Below, piece by piece: positions 2,086 to 49,678 of a DNA stretch of 64,000 bases. Each line of letters opens with the position of its first letter. The stretch's first letter is position 1. The notes under the pieces are model-generated. The model saw nothing but the letters and a program-made list of their open reading frames with translations, did no database searches and was not told the origin of the DNA. Source of the DNA: an uncultured Chloroflexia bacterium. GTDB lineage: Bacteria > Chloroflexota > Anaerolineae > B4-G1 > SLSP01. The position numbers and the translations under genes are program-made. The DNA lies in assembly GCA_963751345.1 (NCBI GenBank), contig CAVVUS010000024.1, forward strand, positions 103,918 to 167,917, in the 5' to 3' direction.

Positions 2086-2902
2086 ATGATGATTAACGCA
2101 AACTACGTCGTGGGAACCCACGATATCGCCTTTGTCGTCTTGGATACCCTCCGGTACGATGTCGCCAGGGATGACGCTGAGAGCGGGCCGAACGCCCAGT
2201 TTGGCCGCCATCCTTCCCGATGGCCAGTGGGAGATGCGACACACGCCGGGGAATTTCACCTATGCCGCACATCACGCCTTTTTCGGCGGCTTCCTGCCCA
2301 CGCCCGCCACGCCTGGGCAACACCCACGCCTCTTCGCCGCACGCTTCCCGGGGAGCGGCACGACCACAGAGATCACCTATGCTTTTGACGCGCCGGATAT
2401 CGTCACCGGCCTGGCAAACGTCGGCTACCATACCCTGTGTATCGGGGGCGTGGATTTCTTCAACAAACTGAGCCCCCTGGGGAGCGTTCTCCCCGGCCTC
2501 TTCGCAGAGAGCCATTGGGATCCTGAACTCGGCGTGAGCGGCCGCCGCTCCACGGAGTATCAGGTCCGTCTGGCAGCCCGGCGATTGGAGGAGATCCCGC
2601 GCGCCCGGCGGGTCTTCCTGTTCCTCAACGTGTCAGCGATTCACCCACCCAACCACTTCTACCTACCGGGGGCCAAAGAGGACAGCCTGGAGACGCAAGC
2701 AGCCGCACTCGCCTACGTCGACCGCCATCTTCCGACACTCTTTGCGGCGCTCCGCCGCCGCGGTCCAACGCTCCTGATCATCTGCTCCGACCACGGCACC
2801 GCCTACGGAGAAGACGGATACTGGGGCCACCGCCTCAGCCATCCGGTCGTCTGGACCGTGCCCTACGCGGAGCTTATCCTACCCGGCGCGATTTCCCTCT
2901 AG
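2086..2902 (+). CDS. STM4013/SEN3800-family sulfatase-like hydrolase, frameshift near 2170
   Basis: '[19 protein letters not shown]' joins '[16 protein letters not shown]...[16 protein letters not shown]'; alkaline-phosphatase superfamily metal motifs. Confidence 0.75.
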
Positions 2903-4077
2903 AGCGAAATTCGCCCGGGAGGTGGGAGTCGCCGCAGCCGCTCCATCGCCTCCCGGATCCGGTCGGTCGGGGCCGTGGCAGAGATACGGACGTAGCCCGT
3001 CCCTGACGGACCGAAGAAGGCACCGGGCGCCACCGCCACCCCGGCCTGTTCCAGCCACCGGCGGGCCAGCACCTCCGAGCTCTCGCCCTCCGGCACCGCC
3101 GCCCAAAGATAGAGTGCAGCCCGCGGCAGCGAGGCATCGAGCCCGACCGCGGTCAAGCCCTCGGCCAGGATCTCTAGCCTGCCACGATAGATGGCGTTGC
3201 GCTCCGCGATCCAGGCAGGTTCGATAGCCAACGCCCGTACGGCAGCTTCCTGCAGAGGATGGAACATGCCCGAGTCCACGTTGGATTTGACCTGGGCTAG
3301 GGCAGCGAGGACGTCGGCGTTACCCACGGCCATGCCCATACGCCACCCGGCCATGTTGTAAGTCTTGGAGAGTGAGTTGAACTCGACGGCGACATCCTTC
3401 GCCCCCTCGACCTGGAGGACGCTGGGTGCCTCGTAGCCATCGTAGGTCACGTCGCAGTATGGGGCATCAAAGCACAGGAGGATGTCGTGGGCGCGGGCGA
3501 AGGCCACGGCTTCCTCCAGGAACGCGAGGTCGGCTACCGCTCCCGTGGGGTTGTTCGGGTAGTTGAGCCAGATCATCCTCGCCCGCGAGAGGGCCTCCGG
3601 CGGAATCGCGTCCAGATCGGGGAGGAAGTTGTTTGAGGCGACCAATGGGAACGTCGCGACTTCGGCACCGGCCAGCAGTGCGCCCATCGTGTAGGGAGCA
3701 TAGCCGGGGTCCGGCACGAGCACGACGTCACCTGGACCCACACAGGCCATGGCAAGGTTGACGATGCCCTCCTTGGATCCCATGAGCGGGACGACCTCGG
3801 TCTTGGGATCGAGGCCCACGTTGAATCGGCGTGCGTAGTATTCCACCACCGCACGCCGCAGGGATGGCAGCCCTCGATAGCCGGAATAGCCGTGATGGCT
3901 GGCTTCGTGCGCCGAAGCGCACAGCGTCTCAATAACGTCCGCAGCGGGAGCAAGATCCGGATTGCCGATATCCAATCGAATCACGTCCACACCTCGCTGC
4001 TGGACCCGACCGATCTCGGCCGCCCAGATGGCGAAAGGATACGGGGGAAGTGTAGCCAACCGCTCAGCTATTCTCAT
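2899..4077 (-). CDS. PLP-dependent class I/II aminotransferase (LL-DAP aminotransferase-like)
   Basis: 'LDIGNPD', 'NYPNNPTG', '[14 protein letters not shown]' (PLP Lys); own ATG at 4077 with a purine-rich RBS. Confidence 0.9.
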
Positions 4078-4082
4078 AATAC

Positions 4083-4545
4083 CTATCCATCCTTTTGGTT
4101 GCGATCCCGCAGGACACCCGAGGAGTGCCTGCAGACCGAGTTCATAACTACGCCAGCCAAAGCCGCTGATCTGGCCAACGCAGACAGGGGCAATCAGCGA
4201 GGTATGCCGAAAAGCCTCCCGCGCGTGGACATTGGAGAGATGAACTTCAACGGCGGGGAGCGCTATGCCGGCAATCGCGTCCCGCAGCGCTACGCTCGTA
4301 TGGGTGTAGGCCCCCGGATTGATCAGTACACCGTCCGCCCAGTCCATCGCAGCGTGAAGCGCATCGATCAGCGCGCCCTCACCGTTGGCCTGCAGGATTC
4401 GCAGATCGGCGCCAATCCGCTCAGCCGCTTGCCTCAAGCGGTCGTCGATCTCGGCAAGCGTGACACTGCCGTAGGTGTCGGGCTCGCGACGCCCCAGTAA
4501 GTTGAGATTCGGACCATGCAGCACAAGGATCTTGAAGGTAGTCAT
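4083..4545 (-). CDS. aroQ: Type II 3-dehydroquinate dehydratase
   Basis: '[17 protein letters not shown]', '[16 protein letters not shown]', '[15 protein letters not shown]'. The stop at 4083-4085 is reached if one extra G near 4118 is removed. Confidence 0.93.
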
Positions 4546-4630
4546 AGATCGGTTTCCCTTTCATCTATACTACGCCAGGGTGATCCGCGAAAGTAATCCG
4601 ATGGACCCGGCCAAGAGAGCTCGGCCAGCC

Positions 4631-6223
4631 TCAATCCCCAGCACGGGCGCCCAACTCGACCAGCACCGAACGCACCAGTTCCTCAGGCACATCGCGCACG
4701 ATCTCGGCCCTGCCAATCTCGTAGGGCAATATCCAGCGTAGTCCGGCTCCCTGGCGCTTCTTGTCGTGCCGCATCGCCGCCCATATCTCGTCCACGGGCC
4801 AGGGCGGGCACGTTATGGGCAGCCCCGCGGACCGCAACGTCGCCGCGATCCCGTCAGACAGGCGCGGCACGGCACGCCCCAGCGATTCGGAAATCCGAGC
4901 CGCTACCACCATGCCGATCGAGACCGCCTCCCCGTGACGCATTCCATAGTGGCTGAGCTGCTCGAGCGCGTGGCCCGCCGTGTGGCCCAGGTTGAGGACG
5001 GCACGGCGACCACGCTCGAAGGGATCCTCCTGGACGATATCAATCTTGACCTGGATCGAACGGGCCAACATTGCGGGCGTGATTCGCATGGCATCCTGCC
5101 GCCGCACCGCCGCCGCCAGCTCTTCATAGAGCAAGGCATCGCCGATGACACCGTGTTTGATGACCTCTGCCATCCCGGAGCGAAGCTCTGCCTCGGGCAG
5201 CGTCTCAAGAACCTCCAGGTCGACGAAGACGACCTCCGGCTGCTTAAAGGCACCGACCAGGTTCTTGCCCTGGGGCAGGTCGACGCCGGTCTTGGCCCCG
5301 ACGCTGGCATCGGTCATGGCTAACAGCGACGTGGGCACCTGAACAAAACGCACGCCGCGCATAAACGTGGCAGCAGCAAACCCCGCAATGTCACCGGTCA
5401 CGCCACCGCCCAGGGCGAGGATCGTGCCACTCCGGTCGAGATCGCCTTCGAGCAACTGATCATAGAGTCCGCGCACCGTCTCAGGCGTCTTGTAGTCCTC
5501 TCCATCCGGCAGGGCACAGATAAAGGACGAGAATCCGGCAGCGGCCAAGGCATCGCTGACCGGTCCTGCGTAGAGCGGCGCCACCACGTCATTCGACACG
5601 ATCGCAACGCGCGTCCCTGTCGAGATGCCCGCAGCCCGTATGACGCCCCCAAGATAGCCGAGCGTATCGCGACCGATGTGGATGTCATACGCTCCACCCG
5701 GATAGGAAACACTGAGCGTGCGAACGTGGGCCAGGTTAGCCACGGCCTCGGCGACTTCGGAGAGCGATCGCCCCTTCGTATCAAGCTGCCACGGGATCGA
5801 CGCGTAGGATTCCTCACGAGCGGACAACAGGCGCTCGGCATCGTCGCGGCGCTCGGGACCGGAGAGAAGCGGACGATCTTCGGCCTCGCCGACCCTACGC
5901 AGGATTTCGTCGACGTCCGCCCGCAGGCAGACGATCGTGGAAGAGCGCGCCCACGCCGCACGGTTCACAGGGCTCACAAGCGCTCCCCCGCCGGTAGCCA
6001 CGACCAGCCCACTGCGCGCACCCAACTCCCGGCAGAGCGCAGACTCCATCTCCCGGAAAGCAGGCTCACCGTCCTCCTCGAAGATGCGTGAGATGGGCTT
6101 GCCTGATCGCACCTCGATCTCGGTGTCCATGTCGATGAAGGGCCGATCCAGCCTCCGTGCCACCTCGCGTCCGACCGCGGTTTTCCCCGTCCCCATAAAG
6201 CCGGTCAGCACCAGGTTATCCAT
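4631..6223 (-). CDS. aroKB: Fused shikimate kinase / 3-dehydroquinate synthase
   Basis: N-terminal 'GFMGTGKT', 'ATGGG', 'RPLL'; C-terminal 'GGGVTGDIAGF', 'PTSLLAMTDASVGAKTG', 'LNLGHTAGHA'. Confidence 0.93.
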   Translation of the reverse strand: MDNLVLTGFMGTGKTAVGREVARRLDRPFIDMDTEIEVRSGKPISRIFEEDGEPAFREMESALCRELGARSGLVVATGGGALVSPVNRAAWARSSTIVCLRADVDEILRRVGEAEDRPLLSGPERRDDAERLLSAREESYASIPWQLDTKGRSLSEVAEAVANLAHVRTLSVSYPGGAYDIHIGRDTLGYLGGVIRAAGISTGTRVAIVSNDVVAPLYAGPVSDALAAAGFSSFICALPDGEDYKTPETVRGLYDQLLEGDLDRSGTILALGGGVTGDIAGFAAATFMRGVRFVQVPTSLLAMTDASVGAKTGVDLPQGKNLVGAFKQPEVVFVDLEVLETLPEAELRSGMAEVIKHGVIGDALLYEELAAAVRRQDAMRITPAMLARSIQVKIDIVQEDPFERGRRAVLNLGHTAGHALEQLSHYGMRHGEAVSIGMVVAARISESLGRAVPRLSDGIAATLRSAGLPITCPPWPVDEIWAAMRHDKKRQGAGLRWILPYEIGRAEIVRDVPEELVRSVLVELGARAGD

Positions 6224-6836
6224 CAGCCACCCCCAATCCCGCCTCCGGGGGAAAAGCACACGCGACCACGCTCGCCACGTCGCGAAGCCAGGTAGCCCTC
6301 TGCTCCGGCGTGCTGGTCACGATGACGCAGTACATCCGGCGATCGAATGCCCGCACTCCGCAGAGATCGAAAATACACCGACGCCAAAGACCCTCGAGGG
6401 GATCGCCGAAGGCCTCGCGCTCGCGCGGCTCCGGCGTGTTCGAGGTATTGAAGACCAAAGCCGCCTTTGCCCGCAGGAGGCCCACCGGCACCCCATCGCC
6501 CGTGTCGCCTTCCAGGAACTCATAGGCGATCCCTGGACGGATCACGCGATCGATCCATCCCTTGAGAATCGCGGGCGGCTGTCCCCACCAATTAGGGTGG
6601 ACGACGATAATCCCATCCGCTTCTGCCACCTCGCGACAATGCCGTTCGATCACAGGATCGAGCACCGCAGCCTTCGGGATCTCCTCGTACGGCAGGATCG
6701 GATCGAAACCCTCGGCATAAAGATCGTGGTAGGCTACGGCGTGTCCGTTCTGCTCAAGCGTCGCCGCGGCGGTCTCCGCGATGGCATGGTTGAAGCTCCC
6801 GGGTCTGGGATGTCCGAGAATGAGGGATATCTGCAA
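6216..6836 (-). CDS. Flavodoxin-fold NAD(P)H dehydrogenase (quinone) family protein
   Basis: 'HPRPGSFNHAI', 'DLYAEGFDP', 'PNWWGQPPAILKGWIDRV'. Confidence 0.88.
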   Translation of the reverse strand: MQISLILGHPRPGSFNHAIAETAAATLEQNGHAVAYHDLYAEGFDPILPYEEIPKAAVLDPVIERHCREVAEADGIIVVHPNWWGQPPAILKGWIDRVIRPGIAYEFLEGDTGDGVPVGLLRAKAALVFNTSNTPEPREREAFGDPLEGLWRRCIFDLCGVRAFDRRMYCVIVTSTPEQRATWLRDVASVVACAFPPEAGLGVADG

Positions 6837-6854
6837 CGGCTGTCTCCTGTCCGG

Positions 6855-8153
6855 TCAGAACAACGCGAACGCCCGCGGATCGACGGCACCTGCCTGGTGC
6901 ACGAGCATCGCGTTCATCAGCTCGACGGCCATGCGTGACTCCAACGTAATCCCCGCGCGCACGCCCACGCAGGGATCGTGGCGGCCCTTCTTAAGCCGGA
7001 ACTCGATCTCCTCCAGGTCCTTACGTACGGAGAGTTGTGGTTTCTGGATGGAAGATGTAGGTTTGAAGGTCACGCGACACACAAGGGGCATGCCGGTGGT
7101 GATCCCACCCAGAAGCCCGCCGTGATGGTTCGACTGAAATCCAGCGGCCCTGATAGCATCGTTGTTCTCACTGCCGCGTCGGTCCGCCACCGCAAACCCG
7201 GCCCCTACCTCGCACGCCTCCGCCGCGTTGAGCCCACCGAGGGCCCCCATCAGCCGCAGCTTGAGGCTCTGGTAGAGCGGCGTACCAGCCAGCGGCGGCA
7301 CGTTGACGGCCACGACCTCCACCACGGACCCGATCGAATCATCCTCGGCGCGAACCTGCTCGATCAGATCGCCGGCTTGCTGGGCAAATGCAGGATCAAG
7401 GCTCGGGATCGCAGCCTCAGTCAAGATGCGTTCGAGCTCGTGGAGCCGGGCGCCGGGTACCGGCGTCCTCTGCGTATGGTCAAGGACCAACCTTTCGACC
7501 TCTTCAGCGAGGGTGCGGGAGGACTTGAGAGAACCGACCTGGAGCACCGAGGAGAGAAAGACCGTTTGGAAGTGTGTTTCCAGAAAAATCCGCGCCACGG
7601 CGCCGCCAATAACGTCCGAGATCGTCGCACGGTAACTCGCCCGGCCTCCACCACGGGGGTCCGCAGTTCCGCGCGACTGGTAATACTTGAGGAGGTCGGC
7701 GTGGCCCGGCCTGACCTCACCCGCCGAGCCGGTGAACTGTGCATAGTCAGCCGAGCGCTTCGAGGAGGAGAGCACCACAGCAGCGATCGGCTCGCCTGTC
7801 GTGGTGCCCTCCTCATATGTGCGTGCTCCCGCAACTTCAGCCGGTGCGATCAGCTCCGCTTCGCCCTCTGGTGGGAGGCTGGGAAAGTAGGGCTCTGAGA
7901 CAAGCCCGGGTCCCGCTAACAAGCGCTCCAGGTCGTCATCGTACAGCCCTGAGAGCAGCAAGACCTGGTCCACCTCGCTCCTGGAGGTGCCGTAGCGGCT
8001 GCCGCCCGGCCGTCGCCGGTCCAAATAGCGCTGGATCTCACGACGCGTAAGACGGAGTCCTGCCGGGCAGCCAAAGACGATCGTCGTATAAGCAGGCCCG
8101 TGCGACTCACCCGCGCCCGCCACGCCAAAGAGCGGCCCTCCAAGGATTTCCAT
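6855..8153 (-). CDS. aroC: Chorismate synthase (divergent, with insertions)
   Basis: 'GESHG', 'RRPG', 'RPGHAD', 'GGRAS.R', 'GGITTG', 'FKPTSSI', 'GRHDPCV'. Confidence 0.92.
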   Translation of the reverse strand: MEILGGPLFGVAGAGESHGPAYTTIVFGCPAGLRLTRREIQRYLDRRRPGGSRYGTSRSEVDQVLLLSGLYDDDLERLLAGPGLVSEPYFPSLPPEGEAELIAPAEVAGARTYEEGTTTGEPIAAVVLSSSKRSADYAQFTGSAGEVRPGHADLLKYYQSRGTADPRGGGRASYRATISDVIGGAVARIFLETHFQTVFLSSVLQVGSLKSSRTLAEEVERLVLDHTQRTPVPGARLHELERILTEAAIPSLDPAFAQQAGDLIEQVRAEDDSIGSVVEVVAVNVPPLAGTPLYQSLKLRLMGALGGLNAAEACEVGAGFAVADRRGSENNDAIRAAGFQSNHHGGLLGGITTGMPLVCRVTFKPTSSIQKPQLSVRKDLEEIEFRLKKGRHDPCVGVRAGITLESRMAVELMNAMLVHQAGAVDPRAFALF

Positions 8154-8156
8154 AGT

Positions 8157-9482
8157 CTATGCCACAAGACGAACGAGATGGTACTGCTTCTTTCCCCGCC
8201 GCAGGACGACATACCGCCCCTCAAAGGCATCGGAGACCGTCAGGCTTCGATCGCTATCAGAGACCTGTACGTTGTTGACGTAGACCCCGCCATTGCTCAG
8301 GAGCCGCCGCGCCTCTCCCTTCGAGCGGGTGAGGCCAAGCTCATCAAAGAGATCGACGACAGAGAGGCCGGCGCCCTCCAAGCGAGACGTCGCGAGGTCA
8401 CTCGATGGCACGTCGGCAAAGATATCGGAGATGTCTTGGGCGTCGAGTCCCGCGATTTCGCCACCGAAGAGCACCTGCGAGGCCTGCTCAGCCTTTGCCA
8501 GGGCCGTCTCGCCATGGGTGAGCCGCGTCATCTCCTGCGCAAGCGTCCGCTGTGCCTCTCGCCTCTCCGGGTGCTCTGCCAGCTTGGTTTCGAACTCGGC
8601 AATCTCCGCCTGATCCAGCCACGTGAAGTATTTCAGGTAGGGGATCACATCGTCATCGCCCTGGTTGAGCCAGAATTGGTAGTAGCGGTAGGGTGAGGTC
8701 TTCTCGGCGTCCAGCCAGATCGTGCCGCGCTCCGTCTTTCCGAGCTTGTTGCCGTCGGCACCGGTCACCAATGGGTAGACGAGGCCATAGGCCCGTGTCC
8801 CACGCGTCCGCCGGATCAACTCGACCCCCGCGGTGATATTTCCCCACTGGTCGCTGCCGCCGGCCTGCAGGGTACAGCGATGACGGTCGTAGAGCTGCTG
8901 GAAATCGTAGGCTTGCAGCAGCATGTAGCTGAACTCGGTGTAGGAGATGCCCTCCTCACGCTGCAGTCGCGTCTTGACCGAGTCCTTGGCCGTCATGTAG
9001 TTGACGGTGAAGTGTTTGCCCACATCGCGCAGGAACTCCATCATCGAGATCTCAAGGAGCCAGTCGGCGTTGTTGACGATCCGCGCCGCATTATCCTTGG
9101 CCTCAAAATTCAGGAAGCGCGCTAACTGTCCCTTAATGGCCTCCACATTGGCCTGGACCTCGGCAGCTGTCATCAACTGTCGCTCGTTGGCCTTACCGCT
9201 TGGATCGCCGATCATGCCCGTACCGCCACCTGCCACCGCGATCGGCGTGTGCCCGAAACGCTGCAGCCGGGCCAGCCCCATCAGTGCCAGTAAGTTGCCG
9301 ACCTGCAGGCTGTCGGACGTTGGATCGAAGCCAATATAAACGGTGACCTTTTCCGATGCCAAGACCTCCGGCAGGCCTTCGGTGAAGTCGTAGACCAATC
9401 CTCGCCACCTGAACTCATCAAACACGCCCTGCGTGAGCACCGTTTCACCTGTCATGGGTCTCCCTTCGCTCTTGTCTGCCAT
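8157..9482 (-). CDS. tyrS: Tyrosyl-tRNA synthetase
   Basis: '[15 protein letters not shown]', 'IGDPSGK', 'GGSDQWGNI', 'KLGKT', C-terminal S4 domain; start may be 9455. Confidence 0.96.
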
Positions 9483-9485
9483 TGT

Positions 9486-10490
9486 TCATCCGTCCGTTCC
9501 ACGCCTGTCGGCCAACGCTCGCATAGAGACGTCGCGCATCTCCCGCGTCGTTCGCTCCACATCGAGTCCAGCATCCAACCATAGCGCCAGCGCCAGGGCG
9601 CCCTGTCGTGCCAACATGCCCAACCCGTCGATCACCCGCGCGCCGCAACGCCGGGCGTGCCGCAGGAGCCGGGTCTCCAGCGGATTATAAACGAGATCGA
9701 AGACCGTCAAATGCTGCGGGAGGGGAATGCGATCCGGCCAGATGCTTTCCTCGACGTGCGGCCACATACCCACCGTCGTCGCATTCACCAGCAGATCCAC
9801 CGTCTCCGCGGCGGCGGCCAGATTCTGCGGATCCAGCGTCAGAGCACCCAGACGCCCATTGCCAATACCCGCACCGTGCAGGTCCGCAACCAATCCTTCG
9901 GCGCGGGCCAACGTCCGGTTGAGCACGTGGACCTCGGCCATCCCCGATGCCAACAACGCGTAGACGACTGCGCGTGCAGCCCCACCCGCGCCAACCACCA
10001 GGGCCCTTCCACCGCCTGCGGGGTCATAGCCGCCGGCCCTTAGCGACCCAACAAAGCCTGGCACATCCGTATTGTAACCGTGGAGCGTTGACGTCCCACT
10101 GCTCTGCCGCCTGACCACAATGGTATTGACAGCGCCTAAGGCCGCAGCCTCAGGAGCGATCTCGTCCAGCAACCCCATGACGGCCCTCTTGTGCGGCACG
10201 GTCACATTGATACCTCGAAATCCAAGTGCCCGTATCCCGCGTATCGCGTCTCCGACCATCCCGGCGGGTACGGGCAAGGGCACGTAGCACCAATTCAGAT
10301 CGAGGCGGTGGAGGGCAGCGTTGTGCATCGCAGGTGACAGGCTGTGAGCCACCGGCCAACCGATGACCCCCACGAGCTGCGTTGCGGCGTCAATCCGGCC
10401 CCTATCTGCATCTCCTTCTACCGTCGGAACATAAGAGGGAGAACACCCGGCTGCAGGCGCGGGGTGAGGGCCGGCAGCCTCACTCACCAT
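9486..10490 (-). CDS. aroE: Shikimate dehydrogenase
   Basis: 'GWPVAHSLSPAMHN', 'NVTVPHK', 'GAVNT', 'NTD', 'GAGGAARA', 'DLVYNP'. Confidence 0.95.
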   Translation of the reverse strand: MVSEAAGPHPAPAAGCSPSYVPTVEGDADRGRIDAATQLVGVIGWPVAHSLSPAMHNAALHRLDLNWCYVPLPVPAGMVGDAIRGIRALGFRGINVTVPHKRAVMGLLDEIAPEAAALGAVNTIVVRRQSSGTSTLHGYNTDVPGFVGSLRAGGYDPAGGGRALVVGAGGAARAVVYALLASGMAEVHVLNRTLARAEGLVADLHGAGIGNGRLGALTLDPQNLAAAAETVDLLVNATTVGMWPHVEESIWPDRIPLPQHLTVFDLVYNPLETRLLRHARRCGARVIDGLGMLARQGALALALWLDAGLDVERTTREMRDVSMRALADRRGTDG

Positions 10491-11913
10491 GGCGCAGCTC
10501 CGCCCCCAGCATCGTCATCGTCTCCGCGAAGCCAGGGAACGAGTCCGGGATACATTCGGCTCCCATGACCTTCGTCTTCCCCCTCGCAATCAGTCCCGCG
10601 ACGACCAGGGCCATACCCAAACGGTGATCTCCTTGGCTGTCCACTTCGGCGCCCTGCAGCCGCGTCGGCCCTGCCACGACAAAGCCATCCGGCCGAGGTT
10701 CGATCTCAGCCCCTAGCTTGCGGAGCTCCATCACTACCGAAGCAATCCGATCGGTCTCCTTCACGCGCAGCTCCGCCGCGTCGCGGACCACCGTCGTGCC
10801 CTCTGCCTGGGTGGCCAAAACGGCAAGGATTGGGAACTCATCGATCATCCTCACCACGATATCCCCACTCACCTCGGCGGCCATAAGGCCGGAAGCGCTC
10901 GCCGTCACGTCCGCGACGGGCTCCCCGCCCTGTTCGCGTACGTTGTCCACGGTCACGTCGGCTCCCATCGAAAGCAGGACCTCCAACAGACCGGTACGAG
11001 TTCGGTTGACCCCGACCCCCAGGAGGGTCACCCTGGCACTTGGGATACACAGTGCGGCAGCCAGCAGGAACGCCGCGGAAGAGAAATCACCCGGGACGAC
11101 CCAGGTCAACGCCCGCAGATAATCGATGGCCCCAGGATCAAGCCTGGCGGTGACGGCATCGAACGCTATCGCCAAGGTGCTCGCTCCGCCCTCCGAGGAA
11201 ACCGCCGCCAGTCTGCCGGCGCTGGATGAGGATCTCTCGCCGGTCTGCCTGAGCGCGATCTGCGCCATCAGCATCCGCTCGGTGTGATCCCGAGCCGGGC
11301 CCGGAAGCAGTACGTTGACCGGCCCATCGGCATACAACCCGGCGAGCAGAATCGCGCTCTTGACCTGGGCGCTTGCCACCGGCAGCACGTGATCGGAGCC
11401 CCTCAGGGGGCCCCGTCCCCGGATGAGCAGCGGAGCGTGACCCTCCGTGTCCGTGATGTCGGCGCCCATCTGCCTCAGCGGCTCCGTGATGCGACGCATC
11501 GGCCGGCGCAGCAACTGGGACTCCCCTGTAAGCTCGGAGTCAAAGGACTGCCCTGCCAGGATGCCCGAGAGCAGGCGCATCGTCGTCCCGGAGCGCCGGC
11601 AGTTGAGTGGACGATCGGGCGCCACCAGACCATGGAGCCCGCGCCCTTTGATCTGCAGGCGTGGGCCATATCCGGGCGTCGCCACGGCGCCGACCGAGGG
11701 CCGATCTACTTGAGCCCCCAACTGCCGGACGCAGTCCAGCGTTGCCAGGCAGTCTCCGGAAGGCAGAAACCCCTCGACGACGCTCGTCCCATCGGCCAGG
11801 GCAGCAAGCATCAGTGCGCGATGGGAGATCGACTTGTCTCCCGGCACCGAGACCGTCCCCTCCAGCGTTGCGGACCCGCTAGCGCCGAATCCCTGAACGA
11901 TCAGCCAAGTCAT
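10480..11913 (-). CDS. aroA: EPSP synthase
   Basis: 'PGDKSISHR', 'SGTTMR', 'SAQVKS', 'ELRVKETDR', 'DHR'. Confidence 0.96.
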   Translation of the reverse strand: MTWLIVQGFGASGSATLEGTVSVPGDKSISHRALMLAALADGTSVVEGFLPSGDCLATLDCVRQLGAQVDRPSVGAVATPGYGPRLQIKGRGLHGLVAPDRPLNCRRSGTTMRLLSGILAGQSFDSELTGESQLLRRPMRRITEPLRQMGADITDTEGHAPLLIRGRGPLRGSDHVLPVASAQVKSAILLAGLYADGPVNVLLPGPARDHTERMLMAQIALRQTGERSSSSAGRLAAVSSEGGASTLAIAFDAVTARLDPGAIDYLRALTWVVPGDFSSAAFLLAAALCIPSARVTLLGVGVNRTRTGLLEVLLSMGADVTVDNVREQGGEPVADVTASASGLMAAEVSGDIVVRMIDEFPILAVLATQAEGTTVVRDAAELRVKETDRIASVVMELRKLGAEIEPRPDGFVVAGPTRLQGAEVDSQGDHRLGMALVVAGLIARGKTKVMGAECIPDSFPGFAETMTMLGAELRHGE

Positions 11914-12784
11914 GGGAACATCTCCTTGCGCGTGTCCCTGATATAGGACAGCGTCTCACGCAGCGCGGCTTCATCTCCATCCTCAACCAACTGGATAAGA
12001 CGTCCCAACTCGGCGGCGCAATGTCGCGCGGCCTTCACGACCTCGTCGCGGTTTGTCGTGAGGATATCGACCATCATCGTGACGTCGCTGCCTGCCACGC
12101 GCGACGTGTCGCGATACCCCCCTGCGACGATCTGCCAGGCCAGGGGATCGGTCGATGTTGTGGCATCCGCCGTGCTCACGAGCGCGCAGGCAAGTAGGTA
12201 GGGGAGATGGCTCACCGTACCCACGAGATAGTCCTGACGCTCGCCGTCGATGACCAGTGGGGTTGCTCCCGCGCTCCGCACCAGGGCTTCCCCCAGACTC
12301 AACGCTGCCTCCGACGTCCGAGGAAGCGGAGACAGGATGAACGTGCGGCTCTGAAAGAGCGTCGGATCCGCAGCTTCGATACCTGAGGTCTCCTTGCCAC
12401 ACATCGGGTGCCCACCCAGGGGCTGTACGTGATCGGGTAAGCCGTCATCGCCTCAAGAACCTTCTCCTTGGTGCTGCCCAGATCGAGAAGGAGCGAACCC
12501 TCTCGCAGCCACGGGCCTATCTCGCCCAGCAGCCTGATAATCGTGCGGACCGGCGTCGCCAGAATCGTAATATCGGCCTCCGCGACCCCTTCCTTCAGGT
12601 CCAGCACGCCACGATCGACAAAGCCCCGGCGCAAGGCGGCCTCCAGGGTCTCAGGGCTGCTGTCTACACCGATAACCTGTGCACAGTGACCACGCAGCGC
12701 GCCCGCCAAAGAGCCGCCCATCAAACCAAGGCCCACAACCGTGACCACAGACTGTGAAAGAGGTTTCATCTCCAACGACGCCAT
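11910..12784 (-). CDS. tyrA: Prephenate dehydrogenase, frameshift near 12440
   Basis: 'GLGLMGGS', 'DLGSTK' in one frame; 'GGHPMCGKE', 'SHLP', '[10 protein letters not shown]' in the next. Confidence 0.9.
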
Positions 12785-12797
12785 ATCTGTCGCCGCC

Positions 12798-13812
12798 CTA
12801 TATCTTTCGTCCGACAGCAGCGGCTATCGGCCGGAGCGAATCCATGAGTTCGGCGAAACGTTCCAGCTTGAGAGACTGCCCTCCGTCCGAGAGCGCCTCC
12901 TCTGGCCGCGGATGGACCTCGATAATCAGGCCATCCGCACCAGCCGCGATGGCTGCCCGCGCGACCGGACTTACCAACTCCCAGTGTCCGGTCCCGTGGC
13001 TCGGATCGACAAGGACGGGTAGATGGCTGAGCTGCTTAAGCAAAGGTATCGCACTGATGTCCAGCGTATTGCGTGTGTAGGGCTCAAAGGTCCGGATGCC
13101 TCGCTCGCAGAGAATCACGCGATTGTTGCCGTGTGACAGGATGTACTCCGCCGACATCAACAACTCCTCGATCGTCGACATCATGCCCCGCTTCAAGAGG
13201 ACGGGGCGCTGAGACTCACCCACGGCGTGCAACAGTGCATAGTTCTGCATACTCCGCGCGCCAATCTGCAGGATGTCGGCGTAGGTCGTGACCAGCGGCA
13301 CCTGTTCGGGAGACATCACCTCTGTCACTATCGGAAGGCCGGTAGCCTCTCTTGCCTCGGCGAGCAGCTTGAGTCCTGTTTCACCGAGACCCTGGAAACT
13401 GTAAGGAGATGTGCGAGGCTTGAACGCCCCCCCGCGTATTGCGTGAGCGCCGGCAGCCTTCACCGCTTCTGCGGTTTCCATGAGCTGGCTCGGCACTCTC
13501 GACAGCACAGGGACCAGCCATCACGATCACTTGCTCACCACCGATAGAAACGCCGTTGATCGGGAAAACGGAGTTCTGCGGATGGAATTCACGACTGGCC
13601 AACTTGAAGGGCCGCAGTACCGGAACGGTGCGCTCCACACCCGACATACGGTCGATCTGCTCGTGATCGATCGGGCGCCCATTGCCAATGACACCGATAA
13701 TCGTGCGCTCCTCGCCTTCGGAAAGATGGACCTGGCATCCCATCTGCTCCACGCGAGCCGAAACGTTGGCGATCTGTGCCGCCGTTGCTCCGTGCTTCAT
13801 AATGATAATCAT
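12798..13812 (-). CDS. aroF: DAHP synthase class I-beta with N-terminal regulatory domain, frameshift near 13490
   Basis: 'MIIIMK...RTIIGVIG...AGPCAVES' then '[15 protein letters not shown]', 'IGARSMQN', 'ERGIRTF', 'DPSH'. Confidence 0.93.
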
Positions 13813-14693
13813 CTCCCCTCCCCCACATTAGCCTCTGTAACAGCACCGTCCCATCTCCACACCTCATCAACCATCGGCGTCGTCGCCGCCGGGTAAGAGC
13901 CCAGCATCTTGACGAACGATGCATGGCGCAGCAACCCCATCAGCGCCGCCTCAGCCGCCAGATCCTGGCAATGCCCCTCGAAGTCGAGATAGAAAGTGTA
14001 GCGCCAGGGCTGATTCAGGCGCGGGCGCGACTCGATCTTGGTGAGGTTGATGCCTCGGTTGGCGAATTCGCCCATGCATTTATACAGTGCCCCGGGGCTG
14101 TGACGCGTGGAGAAGACGACCGACGTTTTCGTGCGTTGGGCTCGGGGCGGATCATCCGTGCCCATGACGAAGAAGCGTGTGTAGTTGAAGTGGAAATCCT
14201 CGATGCCCGGATCCAGGATCTCCAACCCGTACATCTCGGCCGCCAGTCCACTGGCGATCACGGCCACGTCCGGCTCGGGGTTTTCGGCCAAGTCCCGGGC
14301 ACTGCCTGCGGTGTCAAATGCCGGCTCCGGCTTCAGTTCGTAGCGAGACAGGTACCGCTGGCACTGCGCCAGAGCTTGGGGATGGGATCTCACACGGCGT
14401 ATGGCCGCGCGTTGGGTTCCGGGCTGCGCCATCAGCATGTGGCGAACACGCAGGATGACCTCTGCGTTGATCCGTAGATCGCGCTCCAGGAGCAGCTCGT
14501 AAGCGCCTGCAACCGAACCGGCAACCGCGTTCTCGACCGGCAACATGGCGTAGTCAACTCGGCCGGCCTCGACCTCCGGGAACATGTCCTCCAGCCCACG
14601 ACAGGGCAACGTCTCAACGTCCGAGCCAAAATACTGGCGGATGGCCTCCTCTGAATAGGCGCCCGCCACCCCCTGAAAAGCAACGCGTGTCAT
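13809..14693 (-). CDS. pheA: Prephenate dehydratase
   Basis: 'FQGVAGAYSE', 'PVENAVAG', 'SHPQALAQC', 'NYTRF', ACT domain 'INLTKIESRP'. Confidence 0.95.
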   Translation of the reverse strand: MTRVAFQGVAGAYSEEAIRQYFGSDVETLPCRGLEDMFPEVEAGRVDYAMLPVENAVAGSVAGAYELLLERDLRINAEVILRVRHMLMAQPGTQRAAIRRVRSHPQALAQCQRYLSRYELKPEPAFDTAGSARDLAENPEPDVAVIASGLAAEMYGLEILDPGIEDFHFNYTRFFVMGTDDPPRAQRTKTSVVFSTRHSPGALYKCMGEFANRGINLTKIESRPRLNQPWRYTFYLDFEGHCQDLAAEAALMGLLRHASFVKMLGSYPAATTPMVDEVWRWDGAVTEANVGEGR

Positions 14694-15064
14694 ACTCTCC
14701 CCCTCTTCAGATCCGGTCTCAACTGCACTGCATCTCGCAAATAGACATGGTTGATCTCTGCCGGCGCGCGATCCGTGTTCCAATGAACCAGCACCCGAAC
14801 GCAGCGCGGAAGGCTCCCCTCTACCCGCATCTCCTGCATACAGAGAAGGGGTGTTTGCGTCCAGCCCATCTCTCGCGCGACTACCGCAGGATAGACCGCA
14901 TCCAGGTCGGGCGTCGCCGTAAAGATCACGCTGGTAACATCCTCGACTTCCACCCCGTTCTCATCAACGACGGCCATCAACAGCGTGCGTGTGGCCTGAA
15001 TAATGGCGTCCACTGTGTTTTCCGGCACAGTGATGGCGCCCCGAATGCCACGACATCGAACCAT
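14690..15064 (-). CDS. aroH: AroH-type chorismate mutase
   Basis: 'RGIRGAITV', 'FTATPDLDAVYPA', 'CMQEM.V.GSLPRCVR', 'HVYL...LRPD'. Confidence 0.95.
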   Translation of the reverse strand: MVRCRGIRGAITVPENTVDAIIQATRTLLMAVVDENGVEVEDVTSVIFTATPDLDAVYPAVVAREMGWTQTPLLCMQEMRVEGSLPRCVRVLVHWNTDRAPAEINHVYLRDAVQLRPDLKRGRV

Positions 15065-15086
15065 AACAATGCCCCCTTCCAGATAC

Positions 15087-15120
15087 AAAAAAGACGTGGA
15101 GCCGGTCGGCTCCACGTCTT
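15087..15120 (-). terminator. Attenuator terminator of the aro operon leader
   Basis: Minus strand aagacgtggagcc-gacc-ggctccacgtctt followed by more T: 13-bp perfect stem plus U-tract, about 22 nt before the aroH ATG. Confidence 0.9.
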
Positions 15121-15145
15121 GGGTTGCTTTGGGGATTCTACTGAC

Positions 15146-15250
15146 CTACATCGCCCTCCCGGCAACGCAAAGTGGCCGACCCTGGGTGGGGCGGCTAAAA
15201 TAGAAGGTATACATGTAGGTTTTTACAGATTCTCGACTGTGATCGGTCAT
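15146..15250 (-). CDS. Tyr/Phe-rich attenuation leader peptide (34 aa)
   Basis: MTDHSRESVKTYMYTFYFSRPTQGRPLCVAGRAM*; 5 of codons 12-18 are Tyr or Phe; lies between the promoter and the terminator. Confidence 0.82.
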   Translation of the reverse strand: MTDHSRESVKTYMYTFYFSRPTQGRPLCVAGRAM

Positions 15251-15270
15251 AGATACTCAGCCTTAGGTGA

Positions 15271-15309
15271 CGATTAGTACAATACTAATCGCTTCGCGAG
15301 ACTTGTCAA
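15271..15309 (-). promoter_or_regulatory. Sigma70-type promoter of the aro operon with overlapping palindrome
   Basis: TTGACA (15309-15304), 16 nt, TAGTAT; perfect 9-bp inverted repeat CGATTAGTA-N3-TACTAATCG at 15271-15291. Confidence 0.65.
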
Positions 15310-15335
15310 GTGCAAATTGCAGTCCGGCGACAACG

Positions 15336-15728
15336 TCACCCGCTAACGCGCTGCAGGGCCTCCAGCGCGGACGTCAGGGCATCACCCATTGTGCGCAACA
15401 TCGTTTCCCGCGTCTTCAGCGCTTGGGTGACCATCGACTGGTGAATGTCCCACACGGCGCGATCGACCTGATCGTTGTTGTCAACGGGCAGACAGACCGT
15501 CGTGTCGCAGTCGAAATCCACGCGCGTGTACGCCCGCAGTCGCAGTTTGTCGGCGAGCCCGGGATCCAAAAGGTTCAATCCACCATCTGCTAGCATCTTG
15601 ATCTGCGCGCTGGGCGTGGTGAAGGTCCGGACCTCCAACGTACTGATGTCGCTCACAAATGTCTCCGCCTTAGATGCCAGATCTTTGGTGAACTTCTCAA
15701 TTGCGTTTCTCAGATCGCTCTCAGCCAT
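15336..15728 (-). CDS. Hypothetical protein, stand-alone 'domain X' (130 aa)
   Basis: Strong RBS GAGGAGG; visibly homologous to the C-terminus of 16633-19090. Confidence 0.85.
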   Translation of the reverse strand: MAESDLRNAIEKFTKDLASKAETFVSDISTLEVRTFTTPSAQIKMLADGGLNLLDPGLADKLRLRAYTRVDFDCDTTVCLPVDNNDQVDRAVWDIHQSMVTQALKTRETMLRTMGDALTSALEALQRVSG

Positions 15729-15790
15729 TCCTATCCTCCTCATGGATCCTTCGAGAATACGTATGCATCCTCAAGGCAACGGATACCGCT

Positions 15791-49396: not shown

Positions 49397-49437
49397 AAAA
49401 ATCCCCGCCGGCCCAAGAGAGGGCTTTGCGGGGATTT
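49397..49437 (-). terminator. Riboswitch expression-platform terminator
   Basis: Minus strand aaatccccgc...gcggggattttt. Confidence 0.75.
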
Positions 49438-49449
49438 GGTGACATCGCT

Positions 49450-49538
49450 CGCACTCCCTACGCTGGCATGATCCAGATCAGGTTCTAGGGTCGGTGTGAT
49501 CAACACCCTCTCAGCCCATTCCTGGGCTCCCCTGGCTT
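49450..49538 (-). ncRNA. TPP riboswitch
   Basis: Minus strand ggggagccc..gggCTGAGA..gaccctagaaCCTGATctggatcaTGCCAGCGTAGGGA; upstream of thiamine genes. Confidence 0.95.
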
Positions 49539-49678
49539 CAGACATTGTAACTGGCTGTGTGAATGTACTGAAGAGATTATACCATCCGTCTGGCACCTGT
49601 AAAGGTGGCGGCACGTTCTTCATAATTGCCATGATCCAGGTATAATAGCCGATCAAGTCGGCCAAGGGGGAGTTTTCG

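Follow-up and report, generated by a model that had tools for sequence, protein, structure and literature searches.

The stretch of DNA analysed here, a window of 64,000 nucleotides (nt) from an uncultured Chloroflexia bacterium (assembly GCA_963751345.1, contig CAVVUS010000024.1, positions 103,918 to 167,917), carries on its minus strand an aro operon headed by aroH, which encodes an AroH-type chorismate mutase. Immediately 5' of aroH lies a leader of about 190 nt, from start site to U-tract, containing a short open reading frame (ORF) with clustered Tyr and Phe codons, followed by mutually exclusive RNA structures that end in a predicted intrinsic terminator. This element very probably is a classical, ribosome-mediated transcription attenuator of the aro operon, and it belongs to a family of attenuators for which we found neither an Rfam match nor a published description. 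Its features, and those of the genes behind it, are as follows, with the RNA segments and helices predicted by folding.

15282-15309, minus strand: sigma-70-type promoter (TTGACA at 15309-15304, 16-nt spacer, TAGTAT at 15287-15282), matching the consensus at 10 of 12 positions
15261-15264, minus strand: weak Shine-Dalgarno-like AAGG, 10 nt 5' of the leader ATG
15146-15250, minus strand: leader ORF, with ATG at 15250, 34 sense codons and TAG at 15148-15146
15197-15217, minus strand: regulatory codon cluster TAC ATG TAT ACC TTC TAT TTT (YMYTFYF), with three Tyr and two Phe codons
15175-15195, minus strand: hairpin 1:2 (anti-antiterminator), GCCG-CCC/GGG-CGGC, -12.0 kcal/mol
15157-15181, minus strand: segment 2, the 5' strand of the antiterminator (GGUCGGCCACUUUGCGUUGCCGGGA)
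15104-15133, minus strand: segment 3, the 3' strand of the antiterminator, spanning the 5' arm and loop of the terminator
15087-15120, minus strand: intrinsic terminator, with a 13-bp stem at 15120-15091 (8 G-C pairs) and a GACC loop, -24.2 kcal/mol
15080-15072, minus strand: ribosome-binding site (RBS) of aroH, GGAAGGGGG
14690-15064, minus strand: aroH, first gene of the operon (TIGR01796, E 9e-44)
2899-14783, minus strand: rest of the operon, genes named by NCBIfam
8157-9482, minus strand: tyrS, within the operon

The codon cluster occupies codons 12-18 of the leader ORF, whose translation is MTDHSRESVKTYMYTFYFSRPTQGRPLCVAGRAM and which, judging from its sequence, is presumed to be translated from the ATG at 15250 with the help of the weak AAGG box. 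Hairpin 1:2 starts 2 nt past the last Phe codon of the cluster with segment 1 (15195-15189), and the sequence GGUCGGC is common to this hairpin and segment 2. The terminator, which has its U-tract at 15092-15087, is separated from the aroH start codon (ATG at 15064) by 22 nt; the leader stop codon lies 82 nt from the same ATG, which is served by a strong RBS situated outside the hairpin. A Tyr/Phe density as high as that of the cluster (five codons in an eight-codon window) was reached in only 7 of 5000 dinucleotide-preserving shuffles of the 195-196-nt leader (P ~0.0014), and the fold of the same leader has a z-score of -3.65 against 200 shuffles. Every component of a leader-peptide attenuator was found: a short ORF, a cluster of cognate codons and, as predicted structures, a terminator, an antiterminator and a 1:2 hairpin.

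The alternative folds were computed with the ribosome represented by a mask. For a ribosome stalled in the cluster (mask at the last Phe codon through +12 nt, with the RNA 3' end at the terminator loop), the lowest energy predicted for 15186-15104 is that of a pairing of 15181-15157 with 15133-15104 (-29.7 kcal/mol), and the 15104-15133 strand of this antiterminator takes in both the 5' arm and the loop of the terminator. When the mask is moved to a ribosome at the stop codon (15163-15134), the fold contains hairpin 1:2 together with the terminator. A preliminary description of this DNA, made from the sequence alone, had proposed a 34-codon leader with YMYTFYF at 15217-15197, which was found exactly there, together with a hairpin between segments 1 and 2, an antiterminator and a 13-bp terminator; both hairpins were recovered, at 15195-15175 and 15120-15091 and with the energies given above, and the proposed antiterminator is the minimum-energy fold with the ribosome masked at the last Phe codon. 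Folding thus reproduced the suggested logic of the trpL and pheL leaders, in which segments pair as 1:2, 2:3 and 3:4.

Among 41 genomes compared, the source genome included, AroH is present in 30, comprising, besides the source genome, 21 of 21 other genomes of the same genus, 7 of 8 of a second family and 1 of 8 of a third, and all 29 relatives with aroH have the attenuator. The layout lies within 450 nt 5' of aroH in 28 of them (one, L012, is cut by a contig end). In the 29th, G011, the leader (L007, 121.7 bits) stands ~1.95 kb 5' of aroH. Between the terminator and aroH of this genome (G011:C3, ~138603-140548) we observed the ORF of a group II intron (RVT_1, GIIM). Some bacterial group II introns insert just past intrinsic terminators, so that an intron next to the hairpin would fit the hairpin being a real terminator. 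TTGACA occurs at the equivalent place in 26 of the 29 aligned leaders of the relatives, the exceptions in this count being L012 (contig end), L019, L029 (TTGACA found but added by hand). In most relatives the Shine-Dalgarno box is stronger than in the source genome (GGAG, GAGG or AGGAG, 4-12 nt 5' of the start codon).

The preliminary description had let its case hang on whether the leader ORF and its Tyr/Phe cluster recur in relatives, and on this count it was not refuted. All 29 order-level leaders have an open frame carrying the cluster, as do the 89 class-wide loci described below. Of the 28 complete order-level leaders, 24 have an in-frame ATG, and the leader stop codon lies 26-44 nt 5' of the terminator in all 29. 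The clusters differ between relatives in length by whole codons and by synonymous changes. Across the 29 leaders, 171 of 236 cluster codons are Tyr or Phe codons in frame, compared to 9 and 45 in the other two frames, a contrast that is partly circular because the cluster borders were set by in-frame Tyr/Phe codons; the codons used are TAT (61), TAC (45), TTT (44) and TTC (21). The conserved CUUCACGG, by comparison, is read in another frame in L022, L024 and L027, indicating that the 3' half of the leader is kept as RNA and the 5' half as codons. In the stalled-ribosome fold, all 29 leaders form the antiterminator, pairing 5-10 of the 8-10 bases of the terminator 5' arm with the upstream GCUUCRCG, a family-wide core that aligns at segment 2 (15181-15157).

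Covariation, which the preliminary description had put forward as a check, was examined in 79 leaders aligned (alignment A2) by a covariance model, R1, fitted to the structure of hairpin 1:2 and the terminator. A MAFFT alignment (A1) loses the register of hairpin 1:2 between families, and pairs were therefore counted on A2, which leans toward the fitted structure. In this alignment 90.8% of the cells of hairpin 1:2 and the terminator pair, compared to 33-57% with slid partners, and compensatory changes occur in 15 of 19 pairs, supporting both helices: in all seven pairs of hairpin 1:2 and in 8 of 12 pairs of the terminator, where 96.3% of cells pair. The antiterminator pairing was specified after A2 had been built; here 87.7% of cells pair, compared to 31-54% when slid. 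Its changes on both sides are confined to two of ten pairs, formed by the upstream strand with bases of the terminator loop (A2 columns 105-106 with 216-217; UA 22-25, CG 12-15). One further feature stands out in the alignment:

15116-15110 and 15101-15095, minus strand: terminator core CGUGGAG/CUCCACG (A2 columns 206-212 and 226-232), near-invariant

The element is not confined to the relatives of the source genome. R1 matches 69 of 151 genomes sampled over the class (Anaerolineae, by database record labels) at E<=0.01, in 54 of 101 genera, and a model of the scaffold only, R2, matches 79 of the same 151 genomes at E<=0.001; among the matching genomes are single-contig ones such as G114 and G187. 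At E<=1e-4, R1 finds 9 of the 151 genomes of a sample drawn from the whole phylum; seven of them come from a single family of another class, in which 7 of 9 genomes match, and have FY-rich leaders 5' of aroH and a degenerate U-tract. A scan of contigs for an exact pattern combining the antiterminator and terminator cores returned at least 119 loci. Of these, 106 were discarded as chance matches in GC-rich genomes, lacking a Tyr/Phe cluster or U-tract; among the matches listed, 12 are genuine, from records labelled Anaerolineales, Anaerolineae or Chloroflexota (two labelled records are the same contigs as same-genus genomes of the relatives' set), and one borderline locus (L105, 35.4 bits) is in a record labelled Actinomycetota. 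The source genome contains the terminator pattern once and has one full-length R1 match, hence one convincing copy. Two extra R2 matches in this genome (28 and 25 bits) are weak, and were rejected as family members. The weak 28-bit R2 match, L204 (G000:C7:4597-4705, minus strand), consists of a 20-codon ORF (MLDKARVYLAVRDDGEDSLS) and a terminator, and the product of the gene behind it resembles, by eye only, an ABC-F ATPase; it may be an unrelated ribosome-sensing leader.

The identity of the clustered codons was then compared with that of the downstream gene over the class sample. Of 97 loci examined, 89 were accepted as genuine; L209, L213, L217, L220, L225 and L228 were rejected as plain terminators at gene ends, and L226 and L263 because they have no leader with a codon cluster. 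Genes behind the leaders were named by Pfam or, for aroH, by the motif R-G-[IV]-R-G-A, and direct reads were used for L190 and L219 (tyrS, where the scripted frame was wrong) and for L155, L182 and L262 (mislabelled). The accepted loci are distributed as follows.

aroH or aroH-pheA, about 72 loci: Tyr and Phe codons
stand-alone pheA, 3 loci: Tyr and Phe codons
DAHP synthase, 3 loci: Phe with Trp codons (FFFFWWFF, FFYFWFSYF, FFFGWYF)
tyrS, 5 loci, two with an N-terminal B3/4 domain: Tyr codons only (TYAYYYA, RYYVYA, HYYAYA, VYYAYIYA, GYYHC)
Liv-type ABC transporter, 3 loci: Tyr and Phe codons
aspartate kinase, 2 loci: Thr-rich (YTTTTGTPAT, PTTTMMTAT)
gene not named, 1 locus: codons not assigned

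At least one Tyr and at least one Phe codon are present in the regulatory stretch of all 69 script-classed aroH leaders, Phe is absent from all five tyrS clusters, and Trp is found in all three DAHP synthase clusters. The aspartate kinase leaders share the scaffold, with R2 scores of 73 and 35 bits. Since all these genes have one scaffold in common and differ in the codons placed before them, it is the codons that set specificity; this is expected of ribosome-mediated attenuation but not of a scaffold that binds a ligand or a protein. We are slightly inclined to go further and to see in these loci a modular attenuator chassis of the Chloroflexota, conserved in sequence and made up of the hairpin, GCUUCRCG, a loop with the stop codon and the CGUGGAGC terminator, which has been redeployed by swapping leader codons only, the types being Tyr plus Phe, Tyr only, Phe plus Trp, and Thr or Thr/Met. 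The Thr-rich leaders are L166 (G167:C81) and L223 (G095:C10, which also has two Met codons), in other Anaerolineae. The three transporter leaders, L175, L185 and L186 (G050 and G096), stand before permease and periplasmic binding protein genes, and their Tyr/Phe codons suggest that these Liv-type transporters take up aromatic amino acids.

Among known elements, none was matched by the leader. A permissive Rfam scan of 14900-15500 (all 4227 families, E<=10) returned four chance-level matches only, to three microRNA precursors, two of which fall on the terminator hairpin, and to one long non-coding RNA region; no T-box or leader family was matched, the leader models of Proteobacteria and Firmicutes (Phe, Trp, His, Leu, Thr and leu/phe leaders) included. 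At Rfam gathering scores, a scan of the whole window yielded a single element, a TPP riboswitch elsewhere, at 49437-49543 (minus strand, 65.2 bits).

tyrS is a classic T-box gene in Firmicutes, and the preliminary description had remarked that a T-box might be expected at an operon of this kind. The remark was apt, as the T-box model (RF00230) has six matches in the source genome (G000: C14:126863-127193, C18:123492-123744, C30:211375-211689, C18:157206-157507, C32:71752-72055 and C18:173245-173513), three of them above the Rfam cut-off; five of the six precede trpE, thrS, trpS, pheS and valS, though none precedes tyrS. T-boxes have also been listed in two Chloroflexi genomes (PMC2494555). Like the leader described here, a T-box senses tRNA charging and switches between terminator and antiterminator before amino-acid and tRNA-synthetase genes, but it binds uncharged tRNA directly, without translation, and its model has no match at this locus.

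The closest known counterpart of the leader is that of aroR in Corynebacterium glutamicum, which, in the available portion of PMC11802643 (reporting Neshat et al. 2014), carries Phe-Tyr-Phe, precedes aroF and responds to Phe limitation, with Tyr availability having no effect. As presented there, aroR is likewise a leader-peptide attenuator with mixed Phe/Tyr codons before aromatic biosynthesis genes, so a mixed Tyr and Phe leader, which the preliminary description had called unusual, is not without precedent. The two differ in phylum (Actinomycetota versus Chloroflexota), in the genes controlled (the aroF operon versus some 12 genes headed by aroH, with pheA, tyrA and tyrS among them) and in their codons, Tyr outnumbering Phe in the present cluster, and no relation in sequence or through Rfam was found between them. 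With the pheL-pheA and trpL leaders of Escherichia coli, as outlined in the same portion of PMC11802643 (pheL groups are treated in the accessible part of PMC3082878), our element shares a short ORF with clustered cognate codons followed by a hairpin, an antiterminator and terminator that exclude each other, and a U-tract just before the first structural gene. Those leaders are specific to a single amino acid, whereas here Tyr and Phe are combined; their stop codon lies between segments 1 and 2, whereas here it lies beyond segment 2; and the present antiterminator, unlike theirs, extends into the terminator loop.

Aminoacyl-tRNA synthetase genes governed by leader codons for their own amino acid also have precedents: E. 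coli pheST (PMC11802643, portion as above) and, as predicted classical attenuators, trpS and leuS of Streptomyces (PMC1262725, in the text accessible to us, where the Phe and Tyr operons of Actinobacteria are reported to lack conserved upstream RNA elements). The present family differs from these in that the amino acid is tyrosine, with tyrS either inside the operon or, in other Anaerolineae, standing alone behind Tyr-only leaders. In the literature searched, we found no description of a Tyr-codon attenuator for tyrS, nor of leader-peptide attenuation in Chloroflexi or Anaerolineae, most subscription journals and supplements being outside the search.

We propose that the attenuator would operate as follows. 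Transcription would start ~25 nt 5' of the 34-codon leader ORF. A shortage of charged tRNA-Tyr or tRNA-Phe would stall a ribosome in YMYTFYF (15217-15197), with its footprint covering segment 1 (15195-15189), and so leave segment 2 free to pair with the emerging 5' arm and loop of the terminator; the resulting antiterminator would let RNA polymerase read through into aroH and the remaining operon. When both amino acids are plentiful, the ribosome would pass over segment 2 to the UAG at 15148-15146 and block the antiterminator, so that the 13-bp terminator could fold and transcription would end at the U-tract (15092-15087). Without translation, hairpin 1:2 would form, and termination would again follow. 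We infer both the stalling itself and a kinetic trapping of the antiterminator, in which pairing of the terminator loop may deprive the terminator 3' arm of a toehold. Scarcity of either Tyr or Phe alone would presumably suffice for antitermination.

Several observations weigh against this mechanism. The Shine-Dalgarno box of the leader is weak (AAGG, at a spacing of 10 nt), and the cluster has just five regulatory codons, broken up by Met and Thr. Among the relatives, L005, L019, L020 and L030 have GTG or TTG starts only, and L020 stops two codons past the usual ATG, keeping a TTG start only. Of the antiterminator strand, no more than the 5' part is sequestered by hairpin 1:2. Even with a stalled ribosome, the equilibrium favours the terminator fold (-44.9 versus -31.3 kcal/mol), so the antiterminator must act kinetically, like those of other attenuators. 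In eight of the ten antiterminator pairs just one side varies (GU/AU or CG/UG), which means that the support for the antiterminator is mostly conserved complementarity. The core CGUGGAG/CUCCACG is almost invariant across the class, as is the GCUUCRCG facing it; this is unusual for attenuators and exceeds the needs of pairing, and the core may mark an additional constraint, for instance a signal for polymerase pausing or termination, or a lineage-specific factor. The closest known case, aroR, shows no response to Tyr availability in the available portion of PMC11802643, so that dual Tyr/Phe sensing is not assured here. Finally, two operon genes are split in the assembly into two overlapping ORFs each, DAHP synthase (12798-13812) and tyrA (11910-12784). 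In the nearest relative, G002, which is 82-92% identical in DNA over the operon, both genes are whole (337 and 262 amino acids) and aroK-aroB is split instead; the breaks, near 13381-13508 in DAHP synthase and near 12299-12404 in tyrA, therefore resemble assembly errors more than decay, although they may be real frameshifts.

The strict conservation of the 3' scaffold, which comprises the hairpin, GCUUCRCG, a GGAGG box and the CGUGGAG terminator, could instead point to a riboswitch-like or protein-binding switch, in which termination would be set by a ligand or trans-acting factor and to which the short ORF would be incidental or merely modulatory. The terminator-arm positions C206 and G207 are invariant in 79 of 79 leaders, as expected of a scaffold kept as sequence; most antiterminator pairs never change on both sides, beyond what pairing needs; and three relatives read part of the scaffold in another frame. 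Nevertheless, the same scaffold precedes aroH, tyrS, DAHP synthase, ABC transporter and aspartate kinase genes, and it is the in-frame codons that change instead. One ligand or protein bound to the scaffold cannot yield Tyr, Phe/Trp and Thr specificity, and 14900-15500 matches no Rfam family, making such a switch, in our judgement, quite improbable.

We regard it as highly improbable that the hairpin terminates transcription constitutively or leakily, or stabilises the transcript, behind a leader ORF that acts on translation, for instance by ribosome delivery or by reinitiation for aroH. Three points would suit this explanation: all scenarios computed have the terminator fold as their thermodynamic ground state, a boost to downstream translation has been proposed for leader ORFs (PMC4833913, in its accessible text), and the U-tract is degenerate in the second class of the phylum. 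Against it, the ORF stops 82 nt before the aroH ATG, whose RBS is strong and outside the hairpin, the antiterminator pairing is kept with the stop codon consistently between its core and the terminator, and the correlation of codons with genes is what amino-acid sensing predicts. The presence of tyrS in the operon and of T-boxes elsewhere in the genome (six matches, three above the cut-off) could also suggest a divergent T-box reading uncharged tRNA-Tyr or tRNA-Phe. We give this next to no weight, since the T-box model finds nothing in 14900-15500 at E<=10 with permissive filters, ~190 nt from start site to U-tract is short for such an element, and the gene-dependent part comprises several codons in frame rather than one specifier codon. 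Ribosome-mediated attenuation thus remains the explanation that we prefer.

Behind aroH, the operon continues with pheA, DAHP synthase, tyrA, aroA, aroE, tyrS and aroC, and ends with an NAD(P)H oxidoreductase gene, aroK-aroB and aroQ joined to an aminotransferase. Intergenic gaps or overlaps are at most 18 nt, except for 85 nt 5' of the last ORF, and no strong internal terminators were found, the operon having 10 terminator-like sites compared to 7.3 +/- 2.5 in shuffles. Because of the tight spacing and the lack of strong internal terminators, the whole operon is likely to form one transcript under the control of the attenuator. In the last ORF (2899-4545, minus strand, 548 amino acids), residues 1-142 correspond to a type II 3-dehydroquinate dehydratase and are followed by an aminotransferase of the LL-diaminopimelate/aspartate type; G002 has aroQ as an ORF of its own, of 153 amino acids, and the joined ORF represents either a fusion or a lost stop codon. 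The count of 12 genes in the preliminary description, tyrS among them, is correct if aroQ and the aminotransferase, a single ORF here, are taken as two genes. On the other side of the leader, an ORF of 135 amino acids (15336-15743, minus strand) ends 26 nt 5' of the promoter; it matches no NCBIfam or Pfam family, and its C-terminus is kept 5' of the leader in several genomes of the same genus.

The classical form of attenuation is known chiefly from Proteobacteria, and has been predicted in Actinobacteria and in a few Firmicutes. In the Chloroflexota, a phylum with few cultured members whose gene regulation has hardly been studied, it appears here as a widespread and evidently ancient device. 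The family amounts to a natural experiment, in which varied codon clusters on one scaffold link specificity to the leader codons even before any bench work. Within the genome, there is a division of labour, with T-boxes for pheS, trpS, thrS, valS and trpE and a leader-peptide attenuator for tyrS, which is predicted to be co-regulated, through a Tyr/Phe leader, with the common and the Phe/Tyr branches of the pathway. Covariance models of the kind used here could annotate such leaders in metagenome-assembled genomes, and could help to assign an amino-acid specificity to nearby transporters, such as the Liv-type ABC transporters with Tyr/Phe leaders. If the modular chassis is real, these elements would be the first leader-peptide attenuators described in the phylum, and would include the first Tyr-codon attenuator of a tyrS gene.

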